In this document: piece by piece, positions 1,267-19,266 of the stretch
How positions within the stretch are numbered: the stretch's first letter is position 1
Layout: each line of letters begins with the position of its first letter
IMG/VR virus record: IMGVR_UViG_3300036856_000063
Location: 1-40,234 of that record
Direction: 5' to 3' (one strand)
DNA from: a virus
Taxonomy: Duplodnaviria; Caudoviricetes
DNA length: 40,234 nt
Made by a program: the position numbers and the translations under genes
Notes under the pieces: generated by a model
What the model was told of the DNA's origin: nothing
Seen by the model: only the letters and a program-made list of their open reading frames with translations
The model's database searches: none

Positions 1267-3462
1267 ATGACGAGTTCCCCGGCGCCCCAGCGGGAAATCT
1301 ACCGGCACCTCATTCGGGCGGCCTATGCGGCCCGCCAACTGGCGAAGCGGCAGGCGCGCCTGGCCGAACAGGCGGCCGACCACCTGCTGCCGTTCATTGA
1401 GTACACCAAGCCGGACTACAAAGCCGGCTGGTTCCACCGCGAAGTCTGCACGGTGCTTGAACGGTTTCTGGCCGATGTGATGGCAGGCAAACGGCCGCGG
1501 CTGATGCTGTCCGCGCCGCCGCAGCATGGCAAGCTGCTGGCGCATGACACGCCGATCTACACGCCCGATGGCTGGACGAAGCACGGCGATCTCAAGCCGG
1601 GCGCGACGGTGTTCGGCCGCGCCGGGCAGCCGGTAAAGGTGTTGGCGGTCGGCAAAGCCAGCAAAGCGAATCGCGAAGTGGTGTTCAGCGACGGCAGCGT
1701 GATCGGCTGCCATGCGGCGCATGAATGGCCGCTCTATGACCGGACGTCCACGCTGCCGGGGCAAGTCCCACCGCAGCGGGTGGTCGAAACCCGGGCGATC
1801 GAAGCAGAGGGCTTATGGCGCGATCCCGAGCACGAGTATCCGCGCTGGCGGGTGGATCCAGTGGCATTCCGGCCGGCTGGAGACCGGGTGTCCATCGATT
1901 CCCTGGTCTGCCGCCGCACGATTCACGAGATCCGGTCCATCTCGCCGCGCCCGGGTCGCTGTATCCAGGTCGAAGGCGGCGTGTACCTGGCGGGCGAATC
2001 ACTCATTCCTACTCACAACAGCCAGCTCGTCAGCCGCCACTTTCCCACCTGGGCGCAAGGCAAATATCCCGAGTTGCGCTTTTTGTGTGCCAGCTATGGA
2101 GCCACCTGGGCCGATTCCCTGTCCGCGGACCGGCGCAAGATCCTGCTGTCGAGCGAATACCAGGACGTCTTTCCGCGCCAGCGTCTGACCAAGCTGCGCA
2201 GCGATTACCTGCAAAACGCCGACGACGGGTTCATGCTGGCCGCCGGCGTGGGCTGCGGCATTACCGGCCGGTCTTCCGACATCGGCATCATCGACGACCC
2301 GATCAAGGGCTATGAGGAAGCGATGAGCGATTCGACGCGGGAGGGCATCTACAACTGGTACCGCACCGACTTCTATTCGCGGCTCCAAAAGGGTGCAGGC
2401 GTGATCATCATGCTTACCCGCTGGCACCAGGACGATTTGATCGGGCGGCTGCTCGAGGATGCCAAGCACGGGAGCGATGCCTTCCATGTCATCAACTATC
2501 CGGCGATTGCCGAACAGGACGAAGAGTTCCGCAAGATCGGCGAAGCACTGGCCCCGGAACGCTATGACTTACGCGCCCTCGAAGCCATCAAGCATGTGCA
2601 GGGCACGTACGCCTGGAACGCGCTCTATCAGGGTCATCCGGCCCCGGCCGAAGGCCTCATGCTCAAGCGCGATTACTGGCGCTACTATTCGCCTGAGGAG
2701 CGGCCGCAGTTCGATCTGATCGTGCTGTCGATCGATTGCGCCTTCAAATCGACCGTCGATTCCGATCATGTGGCGATGCACGTCTGGGGCTTCATCGGGC
2801 CGCGCGGGTATCTGCTCGATCGCACCTGCGAACGCATGGGCTATACGGCGACCAAAATGGAAGCGAAACGACTCGCCGAGAAGTGGCACGCGCATGCGGC
2901 GTTGATCGAAGACACCGCCAACGGACCGGCCGTCATCGAAGAGTGGCGGCGCACCAATCACGGCGAGATCTCGATTCTGCCCATCGGACCGGCTGGCGGC
3001 AAACTGGCCCGCGCCTGGCCATTCTCGGCCGATCTCGAAGCGGGCAACGCCTTTCTGCCGGAACACGAACCATTCTCGGGCGACATCGTCGACTATGCCA
3101 GCAAGTTCCCCTCAACCTCGATGGATCATGACATCGACGCGATGACGCAGGTGTTCAACTGGCGCCGCGAGAACCTGCACGGGTTGCTCGCCTATTACGA
3201 AGCGGAGGCAAAACATCTGAAAGAAGCAAAGGCCAACGCCAACGGCAACGGCCATGCGAACGGGCACGCCGGGATCGAGCCCGCGCCCGAAATCCGAATC
3301 TGTCCGGCGTGCGGCTCATCCGCCGTGCGCGTGCTCGATGTCAATACCGGCGAGCGGAAATGCAACCAGTGCGGTTTGCAGCATGGGCGCAGCGCAACCG
3401 AACGGGTGGAATACGCGGCGCTGGACCGCAACGAAGTCGCCCTCGAAACACGCCAGTGGTGA
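1267..3462 (+). CDS. terL: Terminase large subunit with intein and C-terminal zinc ribbon
   Basis: Walker A PPQHGK[intein]S, Walker B IGIIDDPIKG, motif III TRWHQDD, nuclease SIDCAFK...IEDTANG...HDIDAMTQ; C-terminal CPACG...CNQCG. Confidence 0.95.
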   Translation: MTSSPAPQREIYRHLIRAAYAARQLAKRQARLAEQAADHLLPFIEYTKPDYKAGWFHREVCTVLERFLADVMAGKRPRLMLSAPPQHGKLLAHDTPIYTPDGWTKHGDLKPGATVFGRAGQPVKVLAVGKASKANREVVFSDGSVIGCHAAHEWPLYDRTSTLPGQVPPQRVVETRAIEAEGLWRDPEHEYPRWRVDPVAFRPAGDRVSIDSLVCRRTIHEIRSISPRPGRCIQVEGGVYLAGESLIPTHNSQLVSRHFPTWAQGKYPELRFLCASYGATWADSLSADRRKILLSSEYQDVFPRQRLTKLRSDYLQNADDGFMLAAGVGCGITGRSSDIGIIDDPIKGYEEAMSDSTREGIYNWYRTDFYSRLQKGAGVIIMLTRWHQDDLIGRLLEDAKHGSDAFHVINYPAIAEQDEEFRKIGEALAPERYDLRALEAIKHVQGTYAWNALYQGHPAPAEGLMLKRDYWRYYSPEERPQFDLIVLSIDCAFKSTVDSDHVAMHVWGFIGPRGYLLDRTCERMGYTATKMEAKRLAEKWHAHAALIEDTANGPAVIEEWRRTNHGEISILPIGPAGGKLARAWPFSADLEAGNAFLPEHEPFSGDIVDYASKFPSTSMDHDIDAMTQVFNWRRENLHGLLAYYEAEAKHLKEAKANANGNGHANGHAGIEPAPEIRICPACGSSAVRVLDVNTGERKCNQCGLQHGRSATERVEYAALDRNEVALETRQW
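1534..2019 (+). mobile_element. Mini-intein (162 aa, class 3-type) inserted in the TerL Walker A motif
   Basis: Starts LLAHDTPIYTPDGW, ends LIPTHN followed by extein Ser; block B HAAHEW, block F RCIQV, block G PTHN; removal restores GKS; no homing endonuclease motif. Confidence 0.9.
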
Positions 3463-5194: not shown

Positions 5195-5302
5195 AGCCAG
5201 AAGCCCGAACGGCCTCTTTGGAAAACCGTCCGGGCAACCCAAAACCGAGGACTCTACCAAAAGTCTCAGTTCAGAGTCAATTTTGACACGCCCCACCTAA
5301 AT

Positions 5303-7657
5303 ATGGCCGGCCAATTAGTCAAACCGCCAACGAGTCTGCTACGCCCGATCCCGGCGCGTCCTTCACAGGTCCGCGGGCTGTCTTCGAGCGAGTGGTTCGG
5401 ACCGCTCGAACCAGTCAAACCGGTAGCGCCGCTCGGCATGCAGCCGCGCCAGTTCGAGTTTCTGCCAGGACAGAACCTCGTCTTCCAGCCGCGCGCCGCC
5501 GAAGCGATCAGCTTCCAGGACCTGATCTATATGGCGGACAACTGCGATTTGGTGCGCATCGTGATTGAAGCGCTCAAGGATTCGGTGTGTCTGCTGCCCT
5601 GGCAGGTGCGGATGCGGCAAATGCCCGGAGAGACGGAGAAGCAGCGCGGCTTGCGCTCGCAATCCGATCCCCGCGTCCAGTACTGGAGCGATCTGCTGGC
5701 CTGGCCCAACCAGACGCAGTCCTGGTGCGACTGGCTGCGCATGCTGCTGGAGGATCTATTCGTTTTGGATGCACCCTCGATCCTGGTCCAGCGCAACCGC
5801 AAAGCCGACATCGGCGCCCTGCGCATAATCGACGGGCAGACCATCAACCGGATCATCGACGATAACGGCTTCACGCCGCTGCCGCCCAACCCGGCCTATC
5901 AGCAAATTCTCTATGGCTTGCCCGCGGTGGATCTCACCACCGAGGATCTGATTTACCGGCCGCGTAATCAGCGGGCGCGCACCTTGTACGGGTTTAGTCC
6001 GGTCGAACAGATTTTACTCACCTTGAACATCGCGCTGCGCCGCAGCCGCTTCCAGCTGGCAGCCTATACCGAAGGCAACGTCCCCGAAGCGCTCTACACC
6101 ATGCCGAGCAGCGTGAACGAAGAGCAGGTGAAACGCTTTCAGAGCTGGTTCGACTTGCAGCTGGCGGGCAATCTGCAGCACCGCCGCCGCATCTGGTTCA
6201 TTCCGGGCGACGACAAAGGCGTCAACCGGCTGCATTTCACCAAAGACGCGCTGATTAAGGATGAAGCCGACGAATGGTTTGCCCGGGTCATTGCCTTCGC
6301 GTTCCGCGTTTCGCCCAAAGAACTGACCCGCATGATGAACCGGGCCACCGCCGAATCGTCCGAAGATAGCGCGCAGGAAATGGGCGTGCAGTCGGTCTGC
6401 CAGTGGATTGCCGACACGCTGAACTACATCATCCAGCGCCAGGAGGGCGATGAAGAGATCGAATTCACCTTCGCGCAGCGTCGCGAACCGGATGCCCTCA
6501 AACAAGCCCAGACCGATCAGGTTTATCTCGGGGCGGGCGTGCGCACGCGCAATGAAGTGCGCGAGTATCTGGGCGACGAGCCCAGCGACGATCCGGCCGC
6601 GAACGTACTGACCTCCAGCGGCCCGCTGGTGGCGATTGATAGCGTGCTCCAGTCCCAGCAGCCGCCCGGCGGCGGGCAGCCGGGACAACCCGGCGGTGCC
6701 TTTAACCCGGATGTCATCAACGGGCAGCCGGCCGAGAGCGCAGGCGGACCAGGCGCAGAAGCAGAAGGGCAGGAAGGCGAGAACGAAGCACCCGAGCCCA
6801 AAGCCAACGAACAGCAGAAAGCCGCCGGCATGGACGATCTCTCCACGCTGTCGGACGAGGAACTGAAGACCATCATTCTGCTCGCCGAGAAAAACGGCGC
6901 GGTCGCGAAGGCGAGCGGTTCCGACGACGACGACAAAGACGAGGACGACGACGAAAAACTGACCGAGGACGATTACAACCTGTTGTTCGAACACATGACC
7001 GGGGCCGAACTTCGGGAACTGTTCGACGCGACAGAAGCCGGAGACGACGACGAGAAAAACGCGGCCGCGAGCGCGGAGGAGCTCGCCAAATTCGAGGAAG
7101 ACGAGCATCCGCGTGCGCCCGCCGGCTCCCATACCGGCGGCAAATTTGTCGAGAAGCCGGGCAAGAAATCACGTCATTTACCCGGCGTGGTCGATCGCCA
7201 CACCCTGAGCGGCGGACAGGGCCAGGGCATGAAGTGGATCCGCCCGCCAAAACGGCTCGGCATTTACATCCGGGATAAATTCCGCTGCGCATACTGCCAG
7301 ACGGACAAAGACACCATCACACTCGATCACCTGATCCCGCATTCCAAAGGCGGCCCGCACAGCGCCGACAATCTCGTAACCTGCTGCAAGAAATGCAACG
7401 ATAGGCGCCGGGACATGCCTATAGAGCAGTTCATCGACCGCTATTTCCCCGGAAAGAAGAAGGCCATCCTGGCCCGCATCGAAAAATCCACCGGCGCGGC
7501 CGTCGAATTGGATCGGGGAAAGGCCGCGCTCGCCAATCGGAAATGGCACGCCGCCATCCAGTACGCCAAAAAGAAGTGGGGCTCGCTCGCGGCGGCCGCC
7601 AAGACGTTGTTGCGCGAGTTCTACTACCAGGAACCGAACGCTGACGAAAGCCAGTGA
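5303..7657 (+). CDS. Portal protein with acidic linker and C-terminal HNH nuclease domain
   Basis: Portal-like core (LLEDLFVLDA, IDGQTI, YGFSPVE, IAFAFRVSP, GVRTRNEVRE) in about the first 440 aa; position between terL and MuF; HNH CAYC...TLDHLIPHSKGG...NLVTCCKKCN at 7286-7399. Confidence 0.9.
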   Translation: MAGQLVKPPTSLLRPIPARPSQVRGLSSSEWFGPLEPVKPVAPLGMQPRQFEFLPGQNLVFQPRAAEAISFQDLIYMADNCDLVRIVIEALKDSVCLLPWQVRMRQMPGETEKQRGLRSQSDPRVQYWSDLLAWPNQTQSWCDWLRMLLEDLFVLDAPSILVQRNRKADIGALRIIDGQTINRIIDDNGFTPLPPNPAYQQILYGLPAVDLTTEDLIYRPRNQRARTLYGFSPVEQILLTLNIALRRSRFQLAAYTEGNVPEALYTMPSSVNEEQVKRFQSWFDLQLAGNLQHRRRIWFIPGDDKGVNRLHFTKDALIKDEADEWFARVIAFAFRVSPKELTRMMNRATAESSEDSAQEMGVQSVCQWIADTLNYIIQRQEGDEEIEFTFAQRREPDALKQAQTDQVYLGAGVRTRNEVREYLGDEPSDDPAANVLTSSGPLVAIDSVLQSQQPPGGGQPGQPGGAFNPDVINGQPAESAGGPGAEAEGQEGENEAPEPKANEQQKAAGMDDLSTLSDEELKTIILLAEKNGAVAKASGSDDDDKDEDDDEKLTEDDYNLLFEHMTGAELRELFDATEAGDDDEKNAAASAEELAKFEEDEHPRAPAGSHTGGKFVEKPGKKSRHLPGVVDRHTLSGGQGQGMKWIRPPKRLGIYIRDKFRCAYCQTDKDTITLDHLIPHSKGGPHSADNLVTCCKKCNDRRRDMPIEQFIDRYFPGKKKAILARIEKSTGAAVELDRGKAALANRKWHAAIQYAKKKWGSLAAAAKTLLREFYYQEPNADESQ

Positions 7658-8864
7658 GTCTGGATGAAAGATGGCAACGCGCGCTGGCCGAACTCGCCAG
7701 GCGCGAATTGCGCAAACGAGCAACCGATGAGCGAGATCTCGACGAAGACGATCCCGATCCGGCACCGCGTGTCTTCGCCACCTATCTTCAGTCCTCCGAC
7801 TGGACCATCGTGGACCCGGCGAAAGCGGATCTCGTCAAGATCGTCGACGAGCGCGATGGCCGCTGCTGGTTCGGGCATATTGGCAACGGCGATAGCGATG
7901 CAGCAAAGAGTGCGGCTGCCGATTTTGCCAAGGACTACGAGGAAGACGAGCACCCGCGCGACGAACACGGCCGCTGGGCTCCGGCGCCAGGCGGCAAGAA
8001 GACAAAGCCTCCAAAAGAACGGTCGCGGGGCAGGATCTCCGAGGAAGCGCCACCGGAAGCGCCACCGGAAGCACCACTCAGCGAGAACGAACGCGGTCTT
8101 TCTTACCACGCGCGTTGGCACGCTAAGATCGCCAGGTCGTTTGCACAGAAACTCGGTTTCCCGCTCGACAAAATCGAGACGTCCGAGGAGAGACTGCCCT
8201 TTAGCGTTGGCACGATGGAGGGCCACGCCGCAGGTGTGGCGGACCTCGAGACGGGGCAGGTCACTATTTTTGCGAATCCCAACAACCGCATCGGGAAAAC
8301 CCAGATCCATGGCATCGTTGCGCACGAGGTCGCTCACGTGCGGTATGAGTCCGTGCTGAATGCCCTCAAAAAAGAGAAACAGATGGTGCGGGCTGCCCGT
8401 CGCGCCGGCCTGGAAGTATCCGATCGCGCCAACTATCATCTCGGGACCAACGCGCATGTCATCAAGGATGACTTTGCTAAGGATTTCCCGTTGTTGTCCC
8501 GGTTCCAGAAGTTCGATGACGAGCAGTTGATGAGAGATGACGGTGTCAGTGAATACAGCGCCGAATACTGGTCGGTTGTGTCCAAAGTAGAGGATGAGGA
8601 CTTTACAGCAGGGTATTTCTACGAAGGCGCAGAAATGGCCAAGCATGAAACCATCGCCGAAATGGCCCGGCTGCGAGACGTTGGCGAGGATAAGCAACGA
8701 GGCGACCGGCCGCCCTCGAAGCTTTGGCAGGATTATTACGATGAAGTCGATAAAAGTTTTGCCGAACTGAACCGCCACGGCGACACCCTCTATCACGAGA
8801 AGCTCGCAGCAGCGGCGGCAGTGGCACTGGCGAAGGGGGACTACGAGGAAGACGAGCATCCGCG
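7093..8864 (+). repeat. Dispersed 21-bp repeat CGAGGAAGACGAGCAYCCGCG, three copies (7093-7113, 7938-7958, 8844-8864), encoding EEDEHPR
   Basis: Read directly; copies differ only at one synonymous His position. Confidence 0.9.
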
Positions 8865-10368
8865 CGGGCCGGGCGGCAAGTGGACAGAAAGCGGCAACAA
8901 GAAGAAACCGAGCAAAGGCCATCCTTGGGTGCGCCATCTCAAGAGCGAGCCCGGGGATCAAGACGAGTTCCGCAGGGCGAACAGCGCATTCAAGCAGTTG
9001 ACTCGACTGCCAGACAGCGAATTTCGGACGATTCTACGCAATCCAGAAGAACGCAGCGCGGTCCTGCAATTCACCGTTGACCTCTGGAAAGAATGGGGCG
9101 AACAGCGCACGTTCGTAAGGCCGTTGATGAAGCGTGTGCTGGCGGAATGCAAGCCCGGTAGCCCGCTCGCAGAACTGCATCCCGGTAACATCACGGTCTA
9201 TCGCGGCTACGGGGAACATTCCAAAGGCCCGGGCGGGATCTCATCCTTCAGTACGAGCAGAAAGCTCGCGGCGGACTTTTCGCGTGGACATACCAACGAC
9301 CGCGGTGAGCCGATAAAAGGAAACGTACGCTCGGTCGAGATCACCGCTAAGGACGCTGCGCTGAGCTTCGACCGACTGAAGCGAACGAAGTGGATCAAAA
9401 CCGACCGCTATTTCTTAACTGAAAAAGAAGTGGTCACCAGCAAAGCCGCGCTGCTGGCGCTGTTGGCCAAACGCGAGTTGACCCGGCGCGGGCGCACGGA
9501 CGAGAAGGAAGACGTGGGACTTAAGGTCGTTCTTACACTGGCACTTCACGAGCTGGCCAAGCGAAAACGCGCCAAGCTGCGCATCGACACGCATGATGCG
9601 GCCCTCAACGCGCATCATGTCGAACAGTTTCAGAATGCCGTGGCGAGCTTTCTGCATACCGAGGGGAATCGCGCGGCCGCCCGGGTGGCGCGCTTGCTCG
9701 GACTGCAGAAGGCAAAGAAACCGCCCGAGAGCGGGCCCTCGGCCGAAGACGTGATCGAAGTGGCGGCCAACGTGGAGTGGCACGAACTGGTAGCCCCGGC
9801 CGAGTCTTCACTCTTCGGCGCGGCGGCGCACGGCGGGTCGATCGGCATCGGCCAGCTGGAGATATCGGATGTCGGGTTGATCTCCGCCGCCAGCGAGAAT
9901 GCCCGTGCCTACGCGCATGAGCGGGCAGCCGAATTGGTCGGCATGCAGTGGCGCGGCGGCAAGCTGGTTCCCAATCCGAACGCGAAGTGGCGGATTGACG
10001 AAACGACGCGCAACGAACTGCGGGTGTTAGTCGAGCGCGCTTTCGAACAGGAAACGCCGCTGGAAAAACTGGTCGAGCAGGTCCGCGAGGCGGGCGCGTT
10101 TTCCGAAGGCCGGGCGAAAACCATTGGCCGCACCGAGATCGCCCGGGCCCAGAGCTACGGCACGCTGCATATCTGGCAAACCATGGGCACCGTCAAAACC
10201 GTGCGCTGGGATATGAGCGCCGATCACGACAACCGGGACGGCTGCGACGAGAATCACGCGGCGGGCGCCATTCCGACCGGTCAGCTGTTTCCGACCGGAG
10301 TTCCCTGCCCTCCCGATCACCCGAATTGCCGATGCGCGCTCGTTCCCGTCGAGTTGAACGAGGAGTAG
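7654..10368 (+). CDS. MuF (SPP1 gp7-like) head morphogenesis protein with N-terminal metallopeptidase and ADP-ribosyltransferase-like domains
   Basis: C-terminal IDETTR...RAKTIGRTEIARA...CDENH...PPDHPNCRCALVP; HEVAH at 8323; YRG (9199), SFSTS (9244), EKE (9421); GTGA overlap with the portal stop. Confidence 0.85.
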   Translation: MSLDERWQRALAELARRELRKRATDERDLDEDDPDPAPRVFATYLQSSDWTIVDPAKADLVKIVDERDGRCWFGHIGNGDSDAAKSAAADFAKDYEEDEHPRDEHGRWAPAPGGKKTKPPKERSRGRISEEAPPEAPPEAPLSENERGLSYHARWHAKIARSFAQKLGFPLDKIETSEERLPFSVGTMEGHAAGVADLETGQVTIFANPNNRIGKTQIHGIVAHEVAHVRYESVLNALKKEKQMVRAARRAGLEVSDRANYHLGTNAHVIKDDFAKDFPLLSRFQKFDDEQLMRDDGVSEYSAEYWSVVSKVEDEDFTAGYFYEGAEMAKHETIAEMARLRDVGEDKQRGDRPPSKLWQDYYDEVDKSFAELNRHGDTLYHEKLAAAAAVALAKGDYEEDEHPRGPGGKWTESGNKKKPSKGHPWVRHLKSEPGDQDEFRRANSAFKQLTRLPDSEFRTILRNPEERSAVLQFTVDLWKEWGEQRTFVRPLMKRVLAECKPGSPLAELHPGNITVYRGYGEHSKGPGGISSFSTSRKLAADFSRGHTNDRGEPIKGNVRSVEITAKDAALSFDRLKRTKWIKTDRYFLTEKEVVTSKAALLALLAKRELTRRGRTDEKEDVGLKVVLTLALHELAKRKRAKLRIDTHDAALNAHHVEQFQNAVASFLHTEGNRAAARVARLLGLQKAKKPPESGPSAEDVIEVAANVEWHELVAPAESSLFGAAAHGGSIGIGQLEISDVGLISAASENARAYAHERAAELVGMQWRGGKLVPNPNAKWRIDETTRNELRVLVERAFEQETPLEKLVEQVREAGAFSEGRAKTIGRTEIARAQSYGTLHIWQTMGTVKTVRWDMSADHDNRDGCDENHAAGAIPTGQLFPTGVPCPPDHPNCRCALVPVELNEE

Positions 10369-10457
10369 TTCGTTTTGTAACAGTTCCTGGCGCGCTGGTC
10401 GAGAAAAGGTTTCTCGCTCCGCCACTCTTCTAATAATCACGTAACGGGTCTCCTCTC

Positions 10458-10487
10458 AGGCCACCGCCCTCGATCGGTGGCCTTTTT
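10458..10487 (+). terminator. Intrinsic terminator after the MuF gene
   Basis: AGGCCACCG, 8-nt loop, CGGTGGCCT, then a T run. Confidence 0.65.
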
Positions 10488-10622
10488 CTATTTCCGCCAC
10501 CGCCGCCGAAATGGAAGAGTTTGCCGATTACGAAGACTCGCTCAGCCTCCCCGCATTCGGCTGGCTGACCGACTGTAAATCATCCCGCCGCGCTCAGCGG
10601 CCTGCAAGGAGTTTCTTCACTT

Positions 10623-12665
10623 ATGGCCATTCCGCAATCGGAATTCAGAAAATTCGTCCCTTTTGCCAAGGTGGACGCCGCCAGGCGGGAAGTCTGGGGC
10701 GCCGTCACGGCCGAAGTCCAGGATAAGGACGGCGAGACCTGCCACTACGAATCGAGCAAGGAAGAGTACAAAAGCTGGTCTACCGAGTTCACCAAAGCCA
10801 CTGACGGAAAGAGCTGCGGCAATCTGCGCGAGATGCATCAGCTCAAAGCCGTAGGGAAAGGCGTGGCGATTGATTTCCGCGACAGCCAGCAGGAAATCTT
10901 CATGGGCTTCAAAGTGGTCGACGAAGACGCCTGGCAGAAGGTCGATGAAGGCGTCTACACCGGTTTTTCCCACGGCGGCAAATATAAGAAACGCTGGAGC
11001 GAAAACGGCCAGCGCTATTACACGGCGTTGCCCACCGAGGTGTCCCTCGTCGATAATCCCGCGCTCGGCGTGTGCCACTTCGCCTATATCAAGGCCGACG
11101 GATCGGTCGAGATGCGCAAGACGCGCTCCGCCGAACCATCGACCTGGGTTCACCCAGAGGAAACCGGCCTCTCGCGCGAAGACGTGCAAGAGATCGTGCG
11201 CACGGCGCTCGACGAGTTCGGCAAAGCCGCTGAGAAGAAAACCAAACGCGTGGATGGCGTCGATCTGCCTTCTTCCGCCTTTGCCTATGTGGGCGACCCG
11301 GACGACACCGGGACGTGGAAGCTGCCGATCAAGTTCCCCGACGAAGAGCAGAGCAAATCGCACATCCGCAATGCGCTGGCGCGCTTCTCGCAGACGCAGG
11401 GGATACCGGCCGGCGAGAAATCGAAGGTGCTGGGCCGCATCAAAGCGGCCGCCAAGAAATACGGCATCGGCGGCGACGACGCCGACAAGGCGTTACTCGA
11501 CGAGCTCGATAAAGCGGAGGCCTCGCCCAGCCCGACGTTACGCGACACGCATCTGGTGCAGTACGTCCCGTCCAAGGAAGCGCCCACACCGGAGAACCCG
11601 ACGCCGGTCGGCAGTTTCCAATGCAGCTGCGGCTGGACGTGCCCGGCCGACCCGAATGCGGTCACCGCGATCACCAAGCACCAAAAAGAGAACGTGGACG
11701 AACCCTCGGTCCGCGCTCTCCTGGTGCAGCAGAAAGCGGCCGAAGCGAGCGCGTTGCTCAGCCAGGCCAACGAGCGCGTCGCGAAAGGGCTCTATGACGT
11801 CTCGCAGTTCGCGCAGTTGCTCGAGCAGTTGAGCTGGCTGCAATGGATGGCCGCGGCCGAAGCCGCCCGCGAAGCCGATGACAGCCCGGTGCCGGCCGCC
11901 TTGCTCGACCAGATTCGAACCCTGTGTCAGACCTTCCTGCAGATGGCGGAAGAAGAGACCGGGGAATTGTTGACGCGCGAAAACCCGGAGCAGCATGGCA
12001 TGCCTATGCGGCTCGCGACTCACGCGCAGTTGAAAAAAGCTTCTGCGCTGCTCACCCGGGCAGCCCAGATTTCCAAATCACAGGCCGGTCAACCGGCACA
12101 AGGAGCAAATACTATGTCGGACCTCACCAAAAAGGCCGGACTCATCGAGCATCTCCAGAAAGCCAAAGCGGATGCTCAGGATCACCACGAAAAAATGCAG
12201 GCCCAGCTCGATAAATGCGTCGGGTGCGTAGGCGGCGAAGACGACCAGGACGCGCAGGGCGGCGGCATGGGCGACAAGAAGAAAGCCGCCACCTCGGAAA
12301 AGACCGCTGCGTCGAAAGGCACGACCGAGGAAGCCGTTGCCAAAACGGCTGCCCCCGCCAAAACAGCCGAATCCGAAGATTTCCTGAAAACCGTCGAGAC
12401 CCGTGTCAACGAAACGCTCGCCGGGTTTAAGAGCCAGTTCGAAGAGCTGCTCGGCAAGCTGAACGAGCAGCTGGAACCGCCCAAGGCCAAGCAGACCGGG
12501 CGTGTGGTCACGAAGACGCAGGATTCCAAGGTGCCAGCCGAATCCGAAGAACAAGAAGAAGAAGCCGAGCCCGTCTTCAAAGCGGCTGGCGCGCCAGCGC
12601 TAGCGGTCAGCGACGAGTATCGGACCGCCATGAAGCGGATCAAGGGTGTCCCGCTCCAGCAGTAG
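10623..12665 (+). CDS. Prohead maturation protease (XkdF/HK97-like) fused to extra domains and scaffold
   Basis: FAKVDAARREVWG, LREMH, YTGFSHGG, EVSLVDNPA in about the first 165 aa; AAGGAG RBS; position just before the capsid gene. Confidence 0.85.
   Translation: MAIPQSEFRKFVPFAKVDAARREVWGAVTAEVQDKDGETCHYESSKEEYKSWSTEFTKATDGKSCGNLREMHQLKAVGKGVAIDFRDSQQEIFMGFKVVDEDAWQKVDEGVYTGFSHGGKYKKRWSENGQRYYTALPTEVSLVDNPALGVCHFAYIKADGSVEMRKTRSAEPSTWVHPEETGLSREDVQEIVRTALDEFGKAAEKKTKRVDGVDLPSSAFAYVGDPDDTGTWKLPIKFPDEEQSKSHIRNALARFSQTQGIPAGEKSKVLGRIKAAAKKYGIGGDDADKALLDELDKAEASPSPTLRDTHLVQYVPSKEAPTPENPTPVGSFQCSCGWTCPADPNAVTAITKHQKENVDEPSVRALLVQQKAAEASALLSQANERVAKGLYDVSQFAQLLEQLSWLQWMAAAEAAREADDSPVPAALLDQIRTLCQTFLQMAEEETGELLTRENPEQHGMPMRLATHAQLKKASALLTRAAQISKSQAGQPAQGANTMSDLTKKAGLIEHLQKAKADAQDHHEKMQAQLDKCVGCVGGEDDQDAQGGGMGDKKKAATSEKTAASKGTTEEAVAKTAAPAKTAESEDFLKTVETRVNETLAGFKSQFEELLGKLNEQLEPPKAKQTGRVVTKTQDSKVPAESEEQEEEAEPVFKAAGAPALAVSDEYRTAMKRIKGVPLQQ
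12114..12665 (+). CDS. Putative nested in-frame scaffolding protein
   Basis: AAGGAG at 12100-12105 precedes an in-frame ATG at 12114 (MSDLTKKAG...); charged coiled-coil sequence. Confidence 0.55.
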   Translation: MSDLTKKAGLIEHLQKAKADAQDHHEKMQAQLDKCVGCVGGEDDQDAQGGGMGDKKKAATSEKTAASKGTTEEAVAKTAAPAKTAESEDFLKTVETRVNETLAGFKSQFEELLGKLNEQLEPPKAKQTGRVVTKTQDSKVPAESEEQEEEAEPVFKAAGAPALAVSDEYRTAMKRIKGVPLQQ

Positions 12666-12723
12666 CCGTAGCCCCTGTGTTCACAGTTAGCCCTCTCACT
12701 TTTTTACAAAGGAAACAATTTTA

Positions 12724-14232
12724 GTGGAACGTTTAGATCAGGCGACGTATCAGTCGCTCGCCGCGAACGCAACGCGTAATTTGCGCAAAGATGCAACCAC
12801 GCAGGGTATTACGACAGCCACCGGGATGGTCTTCTATGACCTCCGGCCCCCGGCTTACCTGCTGTATCCGGTCAACACGCCACTGCGTAACTCGATCCCG
12901 CGCGCCGGGCGAGTCAACGCCGGCGTCGGTACCGCCGCACACTGGAAAGCTTTCATCAACCCGAATGCGACGAATAACTATTCGGGCGTGGCAGAAGGCC
13001 AGCGCAACGCCTTCCTGAGCTTCCAGGAAAAAGACTACACCGCGCCGTACAAGGAAATCGGCCAGGAGTCTTTCACCACCTTCACCGGGCAGTTCGCGGC
13101 CGAAGGCTTCAGCGATCCGATGGCAGACAGCCAGACTATGGTGCTGCACTCGATCATGCTTTCCGAGGAAGGCATGTTGATCGGCGGGAATACCAGCTAC
13201 CAGCTGGGCACCACACCCACCCCCACCGTAGCCTTGGCGGCCGGCACCGGGTTTACCACCGGCGCCACGGTCTCCGTCGCGGTCGTGGCCATCACTCATT
13301 TCGGCTACACGTTGCAAGGCGGCACCGCGGCCGTCACGAGCGGCCTCTCGCCTACCATCACACGCAACAACGCGGACGGTTCGACGACCACCGTCAATGG
13401 CGGGCTGGCGGCCATCAGCGCTATGTCCACCGTCGCGACAACCACCGCTGGCAATAACCAGGTAACGGCCAAGGTCGCCGCCGTCAAAGGCGCAGTGGCC
13501 TACGCCTGGTTCGTCAACACCACCGACGCCTCGGGCCCCACCCTCGCGAATGCGAAACTCGCCGCCATCACCACCGTCCCGACCGCCACTATTACGGCCG
13601 CCGCGGCCGGCACCCAGAACGGAGCCGCGACCGGCCTGAATACCGATACCTCCACCAACTCTCTGTCCTTCGATGGGTTTCTGAGCTTCGCCGCTCAGAG
13701 CGGCATCTGGACGGATCTCGGAGGTACCGCGCTCACCCCGAACGGAGACGGCTCGATCAAGGAGATCGAAACGGTTCTCGCGCAATTGTGGAACACCTAT
13801 CAGGCCACGGTGGACACGATCTATGTCTCCTCCGAGCAGTTGACCCTGATCACCAAAGCGGTCTTCGCCGGTACCGGCGGCAATGCAGGATCGTACCGAA
13901 TCCAGTTGAACCCCGCGGACCAGAACAAGATCATCGCCGGTTCGATGACCGTCAGCTACATCTCGAAGTTCACCATGACCGGAGCGAAGAACATCGACAT
14001 CCGGCTGCATCCCGCTCTCACGCCGGGAACCATGTATTTTGACATTTCGACCAACCCCTATCCGCATAGCCGGGTGGCCAACGTGCGCGAAATCCTGACA
14101 CAACGCGACTATTACAGCCTGCTGTATCCGATCCGGACCCGACGTTGGGAGTACGGCACCTATGTGCATGAAGTGCTGGCACACCGCTTGCCGCAACTCA
14201 GCGCCGTCATCACCGGCGCCGCCCTCAGCTAA
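12724..14232 (+). CDS. Major capsid protein with Thr/Ala-rich insertion domain
   Basis: Follows protease/scaffold; 502 aa; AAAGGA RBS and GTG start; FYDLRPPAYLLYPVNTPLRNSIPR, SFDGFL, C-terminal EVLAHRLPQLSAVITG. Confidence 0.8.
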   Translation: MERLDQATYQSLAANATRNLRKDATTQGITTATGMVFYDLRPPAYLLYPVNTPLRNSIPRAGRVNAGVGTAAHWKAFINPNATNNYSGVAEGQRNAFLSFQEKDYTAPYKEIGQESFTTFTGQFAAEGFSDPMADSQTMVLHSIMLSEEGMLIGGNTSYQLGTTPTPTVALAAGTGFTTGATVSVAVVAITHFGYTLQGGTAAVTSGLSPTITRNNADGSTTTVNGGLAAISAMSTVATTTAGNNQVTAKVAAVKGAVAYAWFVNTTDASGPTLANAKLAAITTVPTATITAAAAGTQNGAATGLNTDTSTNSLSFDGFLSFAAQSGIWTDLGGTALTPNGDGSIKEIETVLAQLWNTYQATVDTIYVSSEQLTLITKAVFAGTGGNAGSYRIQLNPADQNKIIAGSMTVSYISKFTMTGAKNIDIRLHPALTPGTMYFDISTNPYPHSRVANVREILTQRDYYSLLYPIRTRRWEYGTYVHEVLAHRLPQLSAVITGAALS

Positions 14233-15263: not shown

Positions 15264-15737
15264 ATGAAAGTGGTCGTTCCGTTTGCCACCTCGGCCGCGA
15301 TGCTGCCGGCGGTCGAGCTCGCGCTGCGGCAGGATGGCGTCGAGGCCGACTTCCGGCACATGACGGCCGACGATAGCTATTACCAGTTACTCGTCGAACT
15401 GTGGCGCGGCCGGGAAACCTTCGCGCTGGTCGAGCATGACATCATCCCTTGGCCAGGCGCTTTGCAACAGCTGGAAAACTGTCCCGAGGCCTGGTGCACG
15501 TTCCCGTATTACTGTTCCGTCGGTTGGATTGAAGACGGCCTGGGCTGTGTGAAGTTCGGTAAGGAACTGCTGGTTTCCCACCCGTCCTTTCTGGATGAGC
15601 CGTTTCCGCCTTGCTGTAACCATACCAAGTACTACTGCGGTCTCGACCGGTTGATCGCGCATCGCTGTGAGCAGTTAGGCATAGCGCCGCATGTGCACGC
15701 GCCGGGCGTGGTCAACCTGAATGAACGCTGGACCTGA
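15264..15737 (+). CDS. Small GT-A-like glycosyltransferase
   Basis: N-terminal KVVVPF strand, ALVEHDIIPWPG (DxD-like), GLGCVKF, D in GLDRLI, HVH near the C-terminus. Confidence 0.5.
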   Translation: MKVVVPFATSAAMLPAVELALRQDGVEADFRHMTADDSYYQLLVELWRGRETFALVEHDIIPWPGALQQLENCPEAWCTFPYYCSVGWIEDGLGCVKFGKELLVSHPSFLDEPFPPCCNHTKYYCGLDRLIAHRCEQLGIAPHVHAPGVVNLNERWT

Positions 15738-18115
15738 TGTCTGAACAGTTTTCAAACCACGGTGGCACGACGCTAGCTGCGGCCATTACTTCGACTACCA
15801 GGCCGGTTACGTTCACTGTCGCCTCGGCCGCCAACCTGCCTACGCTGGCCAGTTTTCGGGTCATCATCGATGCCGAGATTTTGCTGGTTATAGCCATTAG
15901 CGGCACTTCGCTGACCGGCTCGAACGCAGAAGGGACGACGGCAGCCGTTCATGCCTCCGGCGCAGCGGTCACGCATGTTTTGACGGCTGGGGCGCTGCTT
16001 CAGGCAGAGACGGACGCGGGGAATACACTACTCCAAAGCGGAGGCACGTTTGTAAACGAGGTCACTTTCAACGGCCCGCTGGCCTCACAAGATACTTTGA
16101 CTGTAAACGGTCCTAGTACCTTTGTCAGCCCTGCCACCTTTACCGGCAGTGTTACGTTCTCACCTGGCGGCAATTACCTCACTAGTTTAGGTAACGCTTT
16201 CTATTCATCTCTGACGATGGTGCAGTTGCAGCCACCGTTTATTGAGTCTGTTGTAGCAAACGGAACGACGGGTAGTACCGCTTACACGTATCTAGTTTGT
16301 GCAGTTGCCCAAGACGGCACCAAAACAGATACGAGCAGCTCCCTGCCGAACGGTCAGATTACCAACGGCAATGCGACTTTAAGCTCCTCCAACTTCAATG
16401 TAATCAGCTGGGATCCTGTCGACAATGCTGCTTCTTACAACATCTATCGCGCGGTTGGAGGCAGTAACCAGGGCCAGATAGGCAACACGACCAGCGTCAC
16501 CTTTACTGATACCGGGATTTCCGCCCAACCCGAATCTTTCAACCCTATCCCAACTGTCAATGCGACAGGAGCGGCTGCCTTTCTAGGACCAGTTCAATTT
16601 TCTTCTTACATCAACTTGCTTTCAGGTGTAGGAGTTAATTTCACAACCAGCCATGCTTCTGGTTACTATGAGTACCGCTTCATCCCAGTTCCCGGAGCGG
16701 CCCACGCGAGTGATACGTGGTGTTTGCAATACAATACCCGCACCGTCGGTCCTTTGGGTACCGATAACTGGTTAAACGCCTTCACTGTCCTCGCGCTCAC
16801 CGGTGCGGTGACTTTCGCTAGTCCGGTGACTTTCAGCAACCCAATAACTATCAGCGGAGGGGTTACTTTCAGTGATCAGGCCGGCGCTCGGACCGCCCTA
16901 GGCCTCGGGGCGGCAGCAGTGAGCAGTGTCGGGAACTTGACCGAAGCAACCTCAGCGGTCTTGACGATTACTGGGGGGACGGGCGCCATCCTTGGTTCCG
17001 GGCTCACGGTTCAGGTGAAGCAAGCATCAGCGAGCCAGGGTGGGTATCTGTCGAACAATGATTGGACGACATTCAACTCGAAGCAGGCGGCTTTGACGTT
17101 CCCTTTAAGCATTGGAAATGGAGGCACCGGACAGTTGAGCGCCACGGCTGCGTTGTTTGCTCTTGGTGGAGCTTCTCTCACAGCCAACAACACGTTCAGC
17201 GGGACGAATGTATTTCCCACGATCAAAGTCACCACCAATGGAGCGTCAACGTTTAACATCCTGGGCAGTGGCTCGTCAGGCGATCTCAACATGAGCCCTG
17301 GGGTGTTTGGGACCGACCCTCGCATTTACATCGGAGGTTCTACGGCCACTCCGGCCAGTGTAATAGTTCTTGACTCTGATGAAACCCTGTTACGGAACAC
17401 GGCAGGAACAACCAACTTCGCGACTTTTCAGGCGACAGGTTTACAGATCAATGTTCCGGTATCGCAGGGCACCGCTAGCTTTTCCGGTGTGGCTACTTTT
17501 ACTGCCGGTAGCAACGCCCTAGCAGCCTCGATCACCGGCGGTGGCTCGGCAAGTGGCCTGAACCTGGAGAGCGGTGTGCATGGTACTGATGCGCGCATTT
17601 TCATCGGTGGCACGACCAACGGCAGCCCTGGGATTTTCATTGATTCTCCAGGACATACTTATATTCGTAACTTAACTGGCACTACCATTGCTGATTTCAG
17701 TGTTGCGAGTATTTCGCTCAACGAGCCAGTCCTAGGCGGGATGGGTGGTTGGCAGACCTGGACCCCTAGCTTAACAGCAGCGGGTTCAATGTCATTGAGT
17801 AGCATTACGTACGCAACAACCCAGTACCTGCGTATTGGACCGCTGGTCATGTTCGAACTAGAGTTCACGGTGACTCTCGGAGGGGCTATCAGTGCTTTTG
17901 TTTTCGCATCCGCTCCGCTTAGTTGTGTGGACGGTAATCCTCATGTACTGGCCTGCCAGTCGGTAATTCCGGGTGGGTCGGTTTTCAACCCATCTACTGG
18001 CTGGATTCAAGCAGGCACGTTTGTTTTCGCAAATCCAACTTTCAATTCAACGTCACCAAACTTTGTAGCGGGAGTGTGGCAATTCCGATTGTCAGGCACT
18101 TACCGTGTTGCGTAA
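15737..18115 (+). CDS. Fibre/adhesin protein (792 aa)
   Basis: G/S/T-rich beta sequence; FN3-like WDPVDNAASYNIYR; internal repeat (GTDPRIYIGG / GTDARIFIGG, 91 aa apart); C-terminal WTPSLT...YLRIGPLV; visibly more AT-rich than its neighbours. Confidence 0.75.
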   Translation: MSEQFSNHGGTTLAAAITSTTRPVTFTVASAANLPTLASFRVIIDAEILLVIAISGTSLTGSNAEGTTAAVHASGAAVTHVLTAGALLQAETDAGNTLLQSGGTFVNEVTFNGPLASQDTLTVNGPSTFVSPATFTGSVTFSPGGNYLTSLGNAFYSSLTMVQLQPPFIESVVANGTTGSTAYTYLVCAVAQDGTKTDTSSSLPNGQITNGNATLSSSNFNVISWDPVDNAASYNIYRAVGGSNQGQIGNTTSVTFTDTGISAQPESFNPIPTVNATGAAAFLGPVQFSSYINLLSGVGVNFTTSHASGYYEYRFIPVPGAAHASDTWCLQYNTRTVGPLGTDNWLNAFTVLALTGAVTFASPVTFSNPITISGGVTFSDQAGARTALGLGAAAVSSVGNLTEATSAVLTITGGTGAILGSGLTVQVKQASASQGGYLSNNDWTTFNSKQAALTFPLSIGNGGTGQLSATAALFALGGASLTANNTFSGTNVFPTIKVTTNGASTFNILGSGSSGDLNMSPGVFGTDPRIYIGGSTATPASVIVLDSDETLLRNTAGTTNFATFQATGLQINVPVSQGTASFSGVATFTAGSNALAASITGGGSASGLNLESGVHGTDARIFIGGTTNGSPGIFIDSPGHTYIRNLTGTTIADFSVASISLNEPVLGGMGGWQTWTPSLTAAGSMSLSSITYATTQYLRIGPLVMFELEFTVTLGGAISAFVFASAPLSCVDGNPHVLACQSVIPGGSVFNPSTGWIQAGTFVFANPTFNSTSPNFVAGVWQFRLSGTYRVA

Positions 18116-18124
18116 GGAATTTCT

Positions 18125-18493
18125 ATGGCAAGCACACGAGCACAACAAGCACAACTCATCAGCAATCAAACATTCATTCAACAGGTCATGGGAAGTCTAC
18201 TGGCTGCGGCAGCGCTGATCCTCAACGAGGGTGATTCTGTCACGAATCACGCCAATCGCCTGGCCTGGGCGAATGCGATCTACACGAACCCGTTAGAACA
18301 AACCATGTTTTTCATTCCAGGCGTGCTCACAAACGCGACGATTTCTGGCGAAGCAGGCAATGCAGCAGGCGCCAGCGGTACACCCTGTGCGGATTCGGAC
18401 ATTGATTTCGTGGTCTCCTCGTTGTGGAACAACTATGCAAATCAGTATGTCGCGCAGACCAATATCGGCGTGGCTCTGCAGCTAGGCAGCTAG
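18125..18493 (+). CDS. Hypothetical protein (possible fibre chaperone)
   Basis: AAGGA RBS; directly follows the fibre gene. Confidence 0.6.
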   Translation: MASTRAQQAQLISNQTFIQQVMGSLLAAAALILNEGDSVTNHANRLAWANAIYTNPLEQTMFFIPGVLTNATISGEAGNAAGASGTPCADSDIDFVVSSLWNNYANQYVAQTNIGVALQLGS

Positions 18494-18500
18494 GACCTTT

Positions 18501-18749
18501 ATGGCTCAACCCAATTCAATCACCATAACTTTCGATGTTGACGGAAAGGTAACTACCCTGGAACTGACCAAGCCGGCGATCGGGGTGTTCGAAGAGCAGC
18601 GGTTATCGCAGCGCCAGCCTTCTAACAGCGACGTCGAGCTAGGAGCTCCCCTGGATGCAGATATCGGGGCCATGCTCAAGCGCATGATGCTCGATACCTG
18701 CGCGCAGTTGATGATTCGACCGATGCTGCTTTCTAAAAACGGAGGCTGA
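18501..18749 (+). CDS. Hypothetical protein
   Basis: AGGA RBS and ATG; operon packing. Confidence 0.55.
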   Translation: MAQPNSITITFDVDGKVTTLELTKPAIGVFEEQRLSQRQPSNSDVELGAPLDADIGAMLKRMMLDTCAQLMIRPMLLSKNGG

Positions 18750-18756
18750 GTAGGCT

Positions 18757-19266
18757 TTGTTCACCTCCAAACTAGGGAGCGCGCAAAGCAACCTTGCCAA
18801 CATCGAGTTTGCTTTCCTTGGCGGTCAGCAGCCGCCCCAGCTCATCAGCTTTTCCGCCAGCCTTATGAATTTTGCCGGCAGTGTTCTCAAACAGGACAAT
18901 AAGATGCAGATGGCCTCGATGGCCACCTTTGCCGGAAGCTTGAGCCGCTCGACCATTGTGCTGCTGGCGGCTTCGCTGCATGTTTTTTTGGCCTCGGTCC
19001 AGCGGGGACGCTGGCTGGCAGCCTCGCTGGCGGCGTTTACCGCGGTGTTGGTGCGCGGGCGGGGGCAGCTGTTTGTGGCGTCGATGGCCACCTTTGCCGC
19101 GACAACCACACGCACGAGTTTCATCGTGGTCCTGGCGAGTATGACCCGTTTTTCGGCCGTGTTGAATGCGGTTCACGGCACCGTAATCAAAAACCTGAGC
19201 GCTTCGATGGCCAGCCTGACGGGCGGTATCAGCAAACGGATCGGGAAGTTTTTCAACGCCAGTTAA
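18757..19266 (+). CDS. Repeat-rich virion protein (AS-M/L-xx-F repeats)
   Basis: About eight degenerate repeats (ASLMNFAG, ASMATFAG, ASLHVFLA, ASLAAFTA, ASMATFAA, ASMTRFSA...). Confidence 0.6.
   Translation: MFTSKLGSAQSNLANIEFAFLGGQQPPQLISFSASLMNFAGSVLKQDNKMQMASMATFAGSLSRSTIVLLAASLHVFLASVQRGRWLAASLAAFTAVLVRGRGQLFVASMATFAATTTRTSFIVVLASMTRFSAVLNAVHGTVIKNLSASMASLTGGISKRIGKFFNAS

Follow-up and report, generated by a model that had tools for sequence, protein, structure and literature searches.

Two adjacent head genes in a 40,234-nucleotide stretch of DNA from a tailed phage (Caudoviricetes; IMG/VR virus record IMGVR_UViG_3300036856_000063, completeness about 52%), which we call the window, encode a portal protein and a MuF protein that carry three unrelated enzyme domains, and each domain is preceded by a copy of the same short peptide. 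This peptide, or tag, reads [FY]EEDEHPR…G[KR][FW]. It also occurs in phages with unrelated heads and ahead of many other domains, and the residues just before it vary with the type of prohead protease. We lean modestly toward the explanation that the protease frees the tagged modules and that the tag stays on each of them as a handle for retention or ejection.

Three tagged enzymes on the portal and MuF proteins

The genes, tags, and domains from the portal to the capsid gene are on the + strand. The portal open reading frame (ORF; 5303..7657, 784 aa) consists of a portal domain (aa 87-424; PF04860, E 1.5e-21; phrog_2662, E 1.6e-67), an acidic low-complexity linker, and a tagged HNH nuclease cassette at the C terminus. 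The MuF ORF (7654..10368, 904 aa, GTG start) comprises a 93-aa leader, two tagged cassettes, and the MuF body, as judged from the sequence and Pfam. Its start overlaps the portal stop by 4 nt. Because no slippery heptamer was seen by eye at 7640-7657, we rejected a programmed frameshift that would fuse the two proteins and took them to be coupled genes.

The His codons of the three tags are at 7106, 7951, and 8857, and the pattern HPR-x(1-9)-G-x-[FW] has exactly three matches in the six frames of the window, which are these tags. A predicted protease site, L-A-K (K596; 7082..7090), lies immediately 5' of tag 1 and fits the capsid junction motif of the family. Tag 1 itself (7091..7147, by pattern match) has a long-loop form, F...HPR-x8-GKF, which is also found in other phages. 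Behind it is cargo 1, an HNH nuclease domain (7286..7438, portal aa 662-712; HNH_5, PF14279, E 1.5e-12). Pattern matches also place tag 2 with its predicted site F-A-K (K93) at 7924..7977 and tag 3 with its predicted site L-A-K (K394) at 8827..8883.

Cargo 2 (8032..8790), characterized by alignment, AlphaFold2 (AF2), and Foldseek, is a zincin metallopeptidase, with an HEXXH helix and a downstream Glu ligand on a zincin fold. In an 82-row alignment, the H, E, and H of the motif (HEVAH, 8323-8337) are invariant and the downstream Glu (8647) is nearly so. The AF2 model has a pLDDT of 87, and Foldseek matched it to selecase/abylysin with a probability of 0.98-0.99, yet with E of about 0.1. An unindexed search with a 629-aa query (mostly the zincin domain) found 294 representatives of the family at E<=1e-3, and word-indexed searches at near lengths gave no homologs of cargo 2 or cargo 3.

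Cargo 3 (8917..9471) is, by profile only, an ADP-ribosyltransferase (ART) of the R-S-E type. A profile-profile comparison (hhalign) to ADPrib_exo_Tox modules gave a probability of 85.6 (E 5.5e-6) with R517, S533, and E592 aligned, and the Arg, S-x-S, and E-x-E motifs occur in order. It has no match in Pfam, its AF2 model is poor (pLDDT 50), and fold searches listed no ART among their rows; an ESM Atlas DRAT cluster (0.90) is a lead.

The MuF domain (10021..10341; Phage_Mu_F, PF04233, E 7e-10) occupies aa 790-896 of 904, so the cargo lies N-terminal to it. These domain matches bear out the initial annotation of this DNA, which had proposed that the same tag introduces three unrelated enzymes and that these are stacked in series ahead of MuF and also present on the portal.

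The tag is widespread and precedes many domains

A degenerate tag pattern matched about 380 viral stretches (128 listed), versus 0 for a codon-reversed control, and had about 240 matches in GTDB (124 listed). The titles of the matching records include Bacillota, Proteobacteria, Actinomycetota, Spirochaetes, Melainabacteria, Planctomycetes, and others. The consensus of 307 non-redundant tags, part of which is imposed by the search pattern, is [FW]-x-E-x-[EK]-H-P-R-x(2-8)-G-[KRQ]-[FW], followed by a Gly/Ser linker. The Lys-rich spacer that had been described after each tag is thus local to the window: across the 307 tags, the next 10 residues are 24% Gly, 14% Ser, 10% Thr, and 9% Lys.

Over 34 nt, the three copies in the window share 74-88% identity. 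They may have been copied locally from one another, and we count them as non-independent. Such similarity would also be expected if the tag were a DNA-level recombination anchor for cassette swapping, without a function in the protein. Across the 307 tags, however, every synonymous codon is in use for the H, P, R, and G, which argues that constraint acts on the protein, and the length of the loop varies while these four residues and the aromatics stay. We therefore consider a recombination anchor very improbable.

The expectation that many different enzymes would follow the tag was upheld: the 297 modules behind it group by sequence into 154 clusters, and they represent at least 20 Pfam families. 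When 148 of the modules were scanned, 62 matched Pfam at E<=0.005 (some weakly) and 86 had no match. The classes found are Zeta-like kinase, LPD3, LPD13, PBECR1/3, topoisomerase IB, three ART families, GNAT, Nudix, 2H, RelA/SpoT, SAM lyase, M23, NlpC/P60, papain-fold, PI3/4 kinase, MuF_C, and ParB. The carriers of the tag include six portal families, MuF proteins, and proteases, and the tag spans several capsid families as well.

Cultured carriers include Xanthomonas phage PhiXhv-5, Pseudomonas phage Orimi01, where the tag stands between a portal and an ART, and FP_Brigit. A query with five tags gave no further cultured carriers among the 40 of 208 matches listed, we found no cultured phages with a His-less form of the tag, and the available parts of PMC5883640 report no virion proteomics for FP_Brigit. 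We found no published description of the tag; the supplementary alignments of PMC5512222 and subscription papers could hold one. There is no model of it in Pfam (53 tags scanned), NCBIfam, or the PDB, where the best row was 9rku_Af (E 0.6).

A single chain can hold up to 19 tags (P0066, 7334 aa). In this and two other giant chains, P0136 (3673 aa, 6 tags) and P0048 (1399 aa, 7 tags), the tags have an upstream motif particular to the chain (F-x-x-D/F-A in P0066, L-S-L-x/L-E-L-x in P0136, and L-x in P0048), which suggests further protease specificities.

Among homologs of cargo 2, the tag or a His-less variant lies upstream in 82 of 143, versus 24 of 2860 shuffles, although the former figure is biased upward because the query contained tags. 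His-less variants, Y-S-[DE]-[DE]-x-x-R-D-x-x-G-R-[WF], and QPR forms are seen in L288:1950-9068, L350:3-656, and L031:10599-12035; L288 has five His-less copies, on the portal, MuF (three), and the protease, each behind ΦxK (Φ, hydrophobic). Other homologs have different short Gly/His/Arg-rich leaders in the slot of the tag, before the zincin cargo (P0060, P0081, P0108, P0114, P0117, P0118, P0119, P0140, P0146, P0148, and L320:1417-3156). These candidate leaders are GGPGSG...GHxGRPG, HVKGYTRxDG, GTSEG, CPTGxGGG, HxFRGNQ, and WxTxxGxH, and one of them sits after ΦxK on the protease of a relative.

The tag mostly lies near real or predicted N-termini

By sequence, the tag is mostly found close to a new N-terminus, real or predicted, which would be made in three ways: by a start Met, by a phage-specific motif, or by Rhs self-cleavage. 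An ATG is present 1-4 codons upstream in 89 of 298 cases, versus a background of 7%, and a Shine-Dalgarno-like 4-mer accompanies 66 of 77 such tag starts, versus 21% of internal Met codons.

These stand-alone genes sit among head genes and begin with the tag, with no other visible targeting part, which would be expected if the modules were released but the tag served as a signal for loading and bound a head protein (MuF, portal, or the capsid interior) during assembly, much as the cargo peptides of encapsulins or the capsid targeting sequence of T4 do. A MuF-like ORF in 22 of the 43 tagged loci of at least 10 kb with a portal also fits. We think that such a loading role is unlikely, given that the tag persists on fusions to portal, MuF, and protease, where no such signal would be needed, and that it spans six portal families, several capsid families, and Rhs toxins. 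In T4, moreover, the targeting part is a propeptide that is removed. In all three copies in the window, by contrast, the conserved peptide lies past the predicted cut. Head maturation in T4 (gp21 and its capsid targeting sequence) and SPN3US (gp245, at AXE; PMC10052503, in part) is otherwise alike in that a short P3-x-P1 motif occurs in capsid, scaffold, portal, and ejected proteins, and different in that the tag is common to unrelated head families.

The second kind of N-terminus would come from the prohead protease. We gathered relatives of the window by capsid sequence only, which gave 49 distinct phages with the window included. Ten tag copies occur in four of these phages, and ΦxK lies 0-2 residues upstream in nine of the ten (six of seven without the window), versus a background of 9.3%. 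Four regular-expression matches in unlabelled ORFs (L271, L273, L307, L321) were set aside as not tag-like. The likely major capsid protein of the window (12724..14232; phrog_13692) has a variable leader that ends in L-R-K, and K22 is predicted to be the propeptide junction of the family. A hydrophobic P3 precedes the junction Lys in 17 of the 17 capsid N-termini that were parsed (the other 32 of 49 were not parsed, and the script picked the Lys but not the hydrophobic P3). The scaffold tails of this family have 292 ΦxK sites versus 200 expected, with the motif defined post hoc.

Phages with a DUF2213 protease have D or N at -2 to -4 of the tag in 28 of 32 cases (background 31%), K-type sites in just 2 of 24 loci, and A-x-[DN] as the capsid junction. 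The homologous capsid of E217 is visible from residue 66 on, which its authors attribute to cleavage or disorder (PMC10329688, in part), and A-M-D is at 62-64, just before that residue. Trimer enrichment in the DUF2213 scaffolds showed no x-x-D motif, so the D/N reading rests on the capsid junctions and the residues before the tag. The same zincin cargo is found behind D-type sites in L009-L011 and behind K-type sites in L023, L031, and L067. Within a phage, the concordance of site class is 0.67, versus 0.25 when shuffled (49 phages or polyproteins). On these comparisons, the motif before the tag follows the protease family and the capsid junction of the phage, not the cargo.

The third kind of N-terminus is in Rhs toxins. 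When genomes in the family of a Desulfovibrio-titled locus were scanned with a profile of the tag, 24 of 201 matched. We inspected 17 loci, of which five showed no tag, and set aside one wrong-frame match; 11 distinct tags in seven genomes are 1-9 residues past the Rhs motif D-x-x-G-L, with varied domains behind them, and two tags lie outside Rhs. Cleavage at this motif has been demonstrated for Tse5 (PMC10684867, in part). Rhs proteins with the tag in this position and orphan cassettes are at L185:5857-6609, L196:2021-3487, L258, L364-L372, and L389-L392; in L185 and L196, NlpC/P60 domains are followed by tandem signal-peptide genes, which are likely immunity genes.

That the tag is tied to N-termini from three routes (Met, prohead site, and Rhs site) could also mean that it acts after delivery, either by capping the new N-terminus and controlling how long the freed enzyme lasts or how it refolds, or by binding a conserved host factor. 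F, W, and Y at the N-terminus are a class of bacterial N-degron. The first conserved residue of the tag is F, W, or Y, and 17 of the 59 K-type tags have it right behind the Lys; the compact fold that AF2 predicts for the tag would suit a cap. On the other side, the spacer before the aromatic residue can be anything from 0 to 9 residues long, too variable for a strict N-degron, and the wall-hydrolase cargos work outside the cytoplasm. We regard an action after delivery as distinctly unlikely.

Probable release by the prohead protease

The protease gene lies downstream of MuF (10623..12665) and encodes a prohead protease fused to a scaffold-like tail (phrog_9427, E 2e-8). The initial annotation had correctly placed a prohead protease here, but it is XkdF-like (hhalign 95.7% to XkdF) and not of the canonical HK97 S78 type. 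Its direct Pfam match to XkdF-like (S78_2) is weak (E 0.01), and H72, S116, E139, S141, and D144 are invariant in 38 of 38 relatives. The capsid junction, together with the co-variation of the residues before the tag with protease family, lends indirect support to Lys-specific release by this protease.

Under the explanation that we favor, fusion to the portal and MuF would bring the three enzymes into the prohead, and the XkdF-like protease would likely cut at the Lys of ΦxK before each tag in the maturing head. The freed modules would remain folded inside the head, with the 14-19-residue tag as a hairpin handle at the new N-terminus of the cargo, where it would probably hold the enzyme with the packaged DNA and help it to exit through the portal into the host. 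A handle that acts after cleavage is favored because even the fusion proteins retain the tag, as do phages with unrelated heads and hosts. Once delivered, the enzymes may have anti-defense or takeover roles, as their classes suggest (PMC5512222 and PMC9503650, each in part).

Several results weigh against this explanation. At the level of phages, the Fisher test is modest: K-type sites are in 4 of 7 S78/XkdF-like loci versus 2 of 24 (p 0.014), and the corresponding D test gave p 0.10. The K and D classes were defined after seeing the data, and copies within one phage share descent. L044 has an XkdF protease, yet five of its six tags are D-type at close range; L069 fits neither class, and nor do 86 of the 209 tags that do not follow a Met. 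The D-x-x-G-R core of the tag may be conserved for hairpin geometry only. We found no published experiment on any tagged protein. Within the window, ΦxK is about as frequent as in shuffled sequences (7 versus 6.1 in the portal ORF and 11 versus 9.4 in the MuF ORF), and several of the sites are inside the zincin domain.

Because ΦxK is not enriched in these ORFs, the "AK" sites that had been proposed to end each domain are by themselves no evidence of cleavage; P1' of the site that follows the ART is Arg. A likelier site for C-terminal release from MuF is the Lys of L-Q-K (K686; 9703..9711) before the MuF body, where 21 of 26 aligned rows have a Lys no more than 3 columns away. The lack of enrichment also favors the possibility that the chains stay uncut or are processed by their own zincin. 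The tag would then be only a structural linker cap, and the presence of Lys motifs incidental. The zincin in the MuF ORF is intact, and Iyer et al. propose autoprocessing by zincin domains and cite unprocessed examples (PMC5512222, in part). We nevertheless consider this improbable, as the portal cassette has no zincin and the motif before the tag tracks the protease family and the capsid junction rather than the cargo.

If the modules are indeed released with the tag as a handle, what might the handle bind? In the AF2 model, tag 2 is a small ordered hairpin element (residue block pLDDT 85, with an Arg-Trp bridge), and the linker behind it is of low confidence. The GXGGRF loop of NF-YA contacts DNA. 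Tag forms with G-x-G-[GK]-[RK]-[FW] look like this loop, a resemblance only and a lead (motif in PMC12101057, in part), and the D-x-x-G-R core corresponds to the hairpin turn of YD repeats (PMC10684867, in part). DNA is the ligand that we favor because six portal families and many host phyla share the tag, which argues for a universal ligand. Even given release and the rest of the explanation, we favor DNA only tentatively, and the choice of partner is the weakest link of the account. A comparison of the tag profile to the PDB gave no NF-YA chain (E<=10) or other DNA-binding chain, the mean net charge of the tag is -1.3, and two of the Rhs cargos are NlpC/P60 wall hydrolases, which have no need for DNA.

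Origin at the portal-MuF junction

Among the capsid-selected relatives, portal and MuF were both detected in 23 phages other than the window. In 15 of them the two form a single fused portal-MuF protein, and in the other 8 they are separate genes. The top two portal matches (68% and 56%) are both portal-MuF fusions that lack cargo. Because most relatives have a single cargo-free fusion, we conclude from these comparisons that the cassettes were inserted at the portal-MuF junction, and this explains why the enzymes precede MuF in the chain. The initial annotation had drawn a real contrast with MuF toxins, but one that has this simpler origin. By eye, relatives have other cargo at this junction or after MuF, including 2H-like domains, an HEXXH domain, and an intein-like insert (L348:4050-6356, L288:4097-7105, L281:3449-6658, L309:1454-4585). 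In a close relative (L267:4248-6614), a ClpB-like AAA ATPase and a glycosyltransferase-like ORF, both identified by eye, are between MuF and the protease.

Comparison with known systems

Serially stacked effectors on the portal, MuF, and head protease have already been described as polyvalent proteins, so the novelty here lies in the tag and in its link to cleavage sites rather than in the idea of cargo. As in the available descriptions of those proteins (PMC5512222, PMC9503650), unrelated enzymes (zincin, ART, and nuclease) are attached to portal or MuF in chains that the head module encodes. Both chains in the window combine disparate domains (zincin, ART, and MuF in one, portal and HNH in the other) and are encoded in the terminase-portal head module, and the cargos of the tag (LPD3, LPD13, PBECR, ART-PolyVal, 2H, RelA/SpoT, and Nudix) largely reproduce the list of polyvalent domains. 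Processing of polyvalent proteins has been proposed to be by a zincin or assemblin domain of the same chain. The difference is that, in the available parts of these papers, polyvalent proteins are named without a shared leader peptide, whereas the modules of the window are tagged individually, and each tag follows a site that matches the capsid junction.

MuF polymorphic toxins are similar in that the gene with the MuF1 domain comes right after the portal gene, as it does in the window, and in carrying domains of the nuclease, peptidase, and ART classes (PMC5576092, in part). In those toxins, however, the toxin is a C-terminal extension of MuF, whereas in the window MuF ends the ORF and the cargo is N-terminal and serial, with one cassette on the portal. 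Also, 89% of them have a small downstream ORF, and the window has none. A terminator-like hairpin (10458..10483; a 9-bp stem and a T run, by consensus match only) lies 90 nt past the MuF stop, and between them there is no plausible immunity ORF, just short ORFs that overlap the neighbors or the hairpin. The initial annotation was therefore right that no immunity gene follows.

Rhs toxins such as Tse5 are alike in that the cargo is freed inside a protein container with a narrow exit (PMC10684867, in part), and the tag itself follows D-x-x-G-L in Rhs proteins of the Desulfovibrio family. They differ in their aspartyl self-cleavage and immunity genes, and the locus in the window has no Rhs gene.

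Significance

What is known of the selection, release, and ejection of proteins that act ahead of phage gene expression comes largely from T4, P1, and jumbo phages, and little of it from other temperate and mid-sized phages. A short tag tied to a maturation site makes delivery of protein before expression directly testable, also in the cultured phages Orimi01 and PhiXhv-5. The 86 of 148 modules without a Pfam match are candidate injected effectors, beside the SAM lyase, the 2H phosphoesterase, and RelA/SpoT, and the reuse of the tag in Rhs toxins connects two delivery systems.

[quoted passage not shown] This code would span tailed phages of many bacterial phyla, several interchangeable leader peptides might replace the handle, and Rhs toxins would have adopted the same handle for exit from their cocoon. 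If so, the tag would be a search key for hundreds of anti-defense enzymes that act in the first minute, and a general tool for delivering proteins by phage.

Other features of the head module

The order of the head genes is terminase (1267-3462), portal, MuF, protease-scaffold, and the likely capsid gene, which weakly matches a gene annotated as major capsid in Arthrobacter phage Mufasa8; no solved structure related to the capsid protein was found. The record is carried by one soil metagenome run, possibly its own source. One contig covers positions 5300-12700 without differences and may be the source of the record itself. No RNA datasets were listed as carrying the sequence of the window.

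Within the protease-scaffold chain is a DUF6582-like domain (11350-11470, aa 244-282), which is flanked by Lys motifs and which many relatives keep. Between the MuF terminator and the protease, at 10511-10580, is a short acidic stretch that by eye resembles a similarly placed one at L267:5309-5400; it is possibly a small conserved peptide or a regulatory element. Between the head and tail genes, positions 15737-19000 have low GC (53%) and contain a 792-aa Thr/Gly-rich ORF without a Pfam match.

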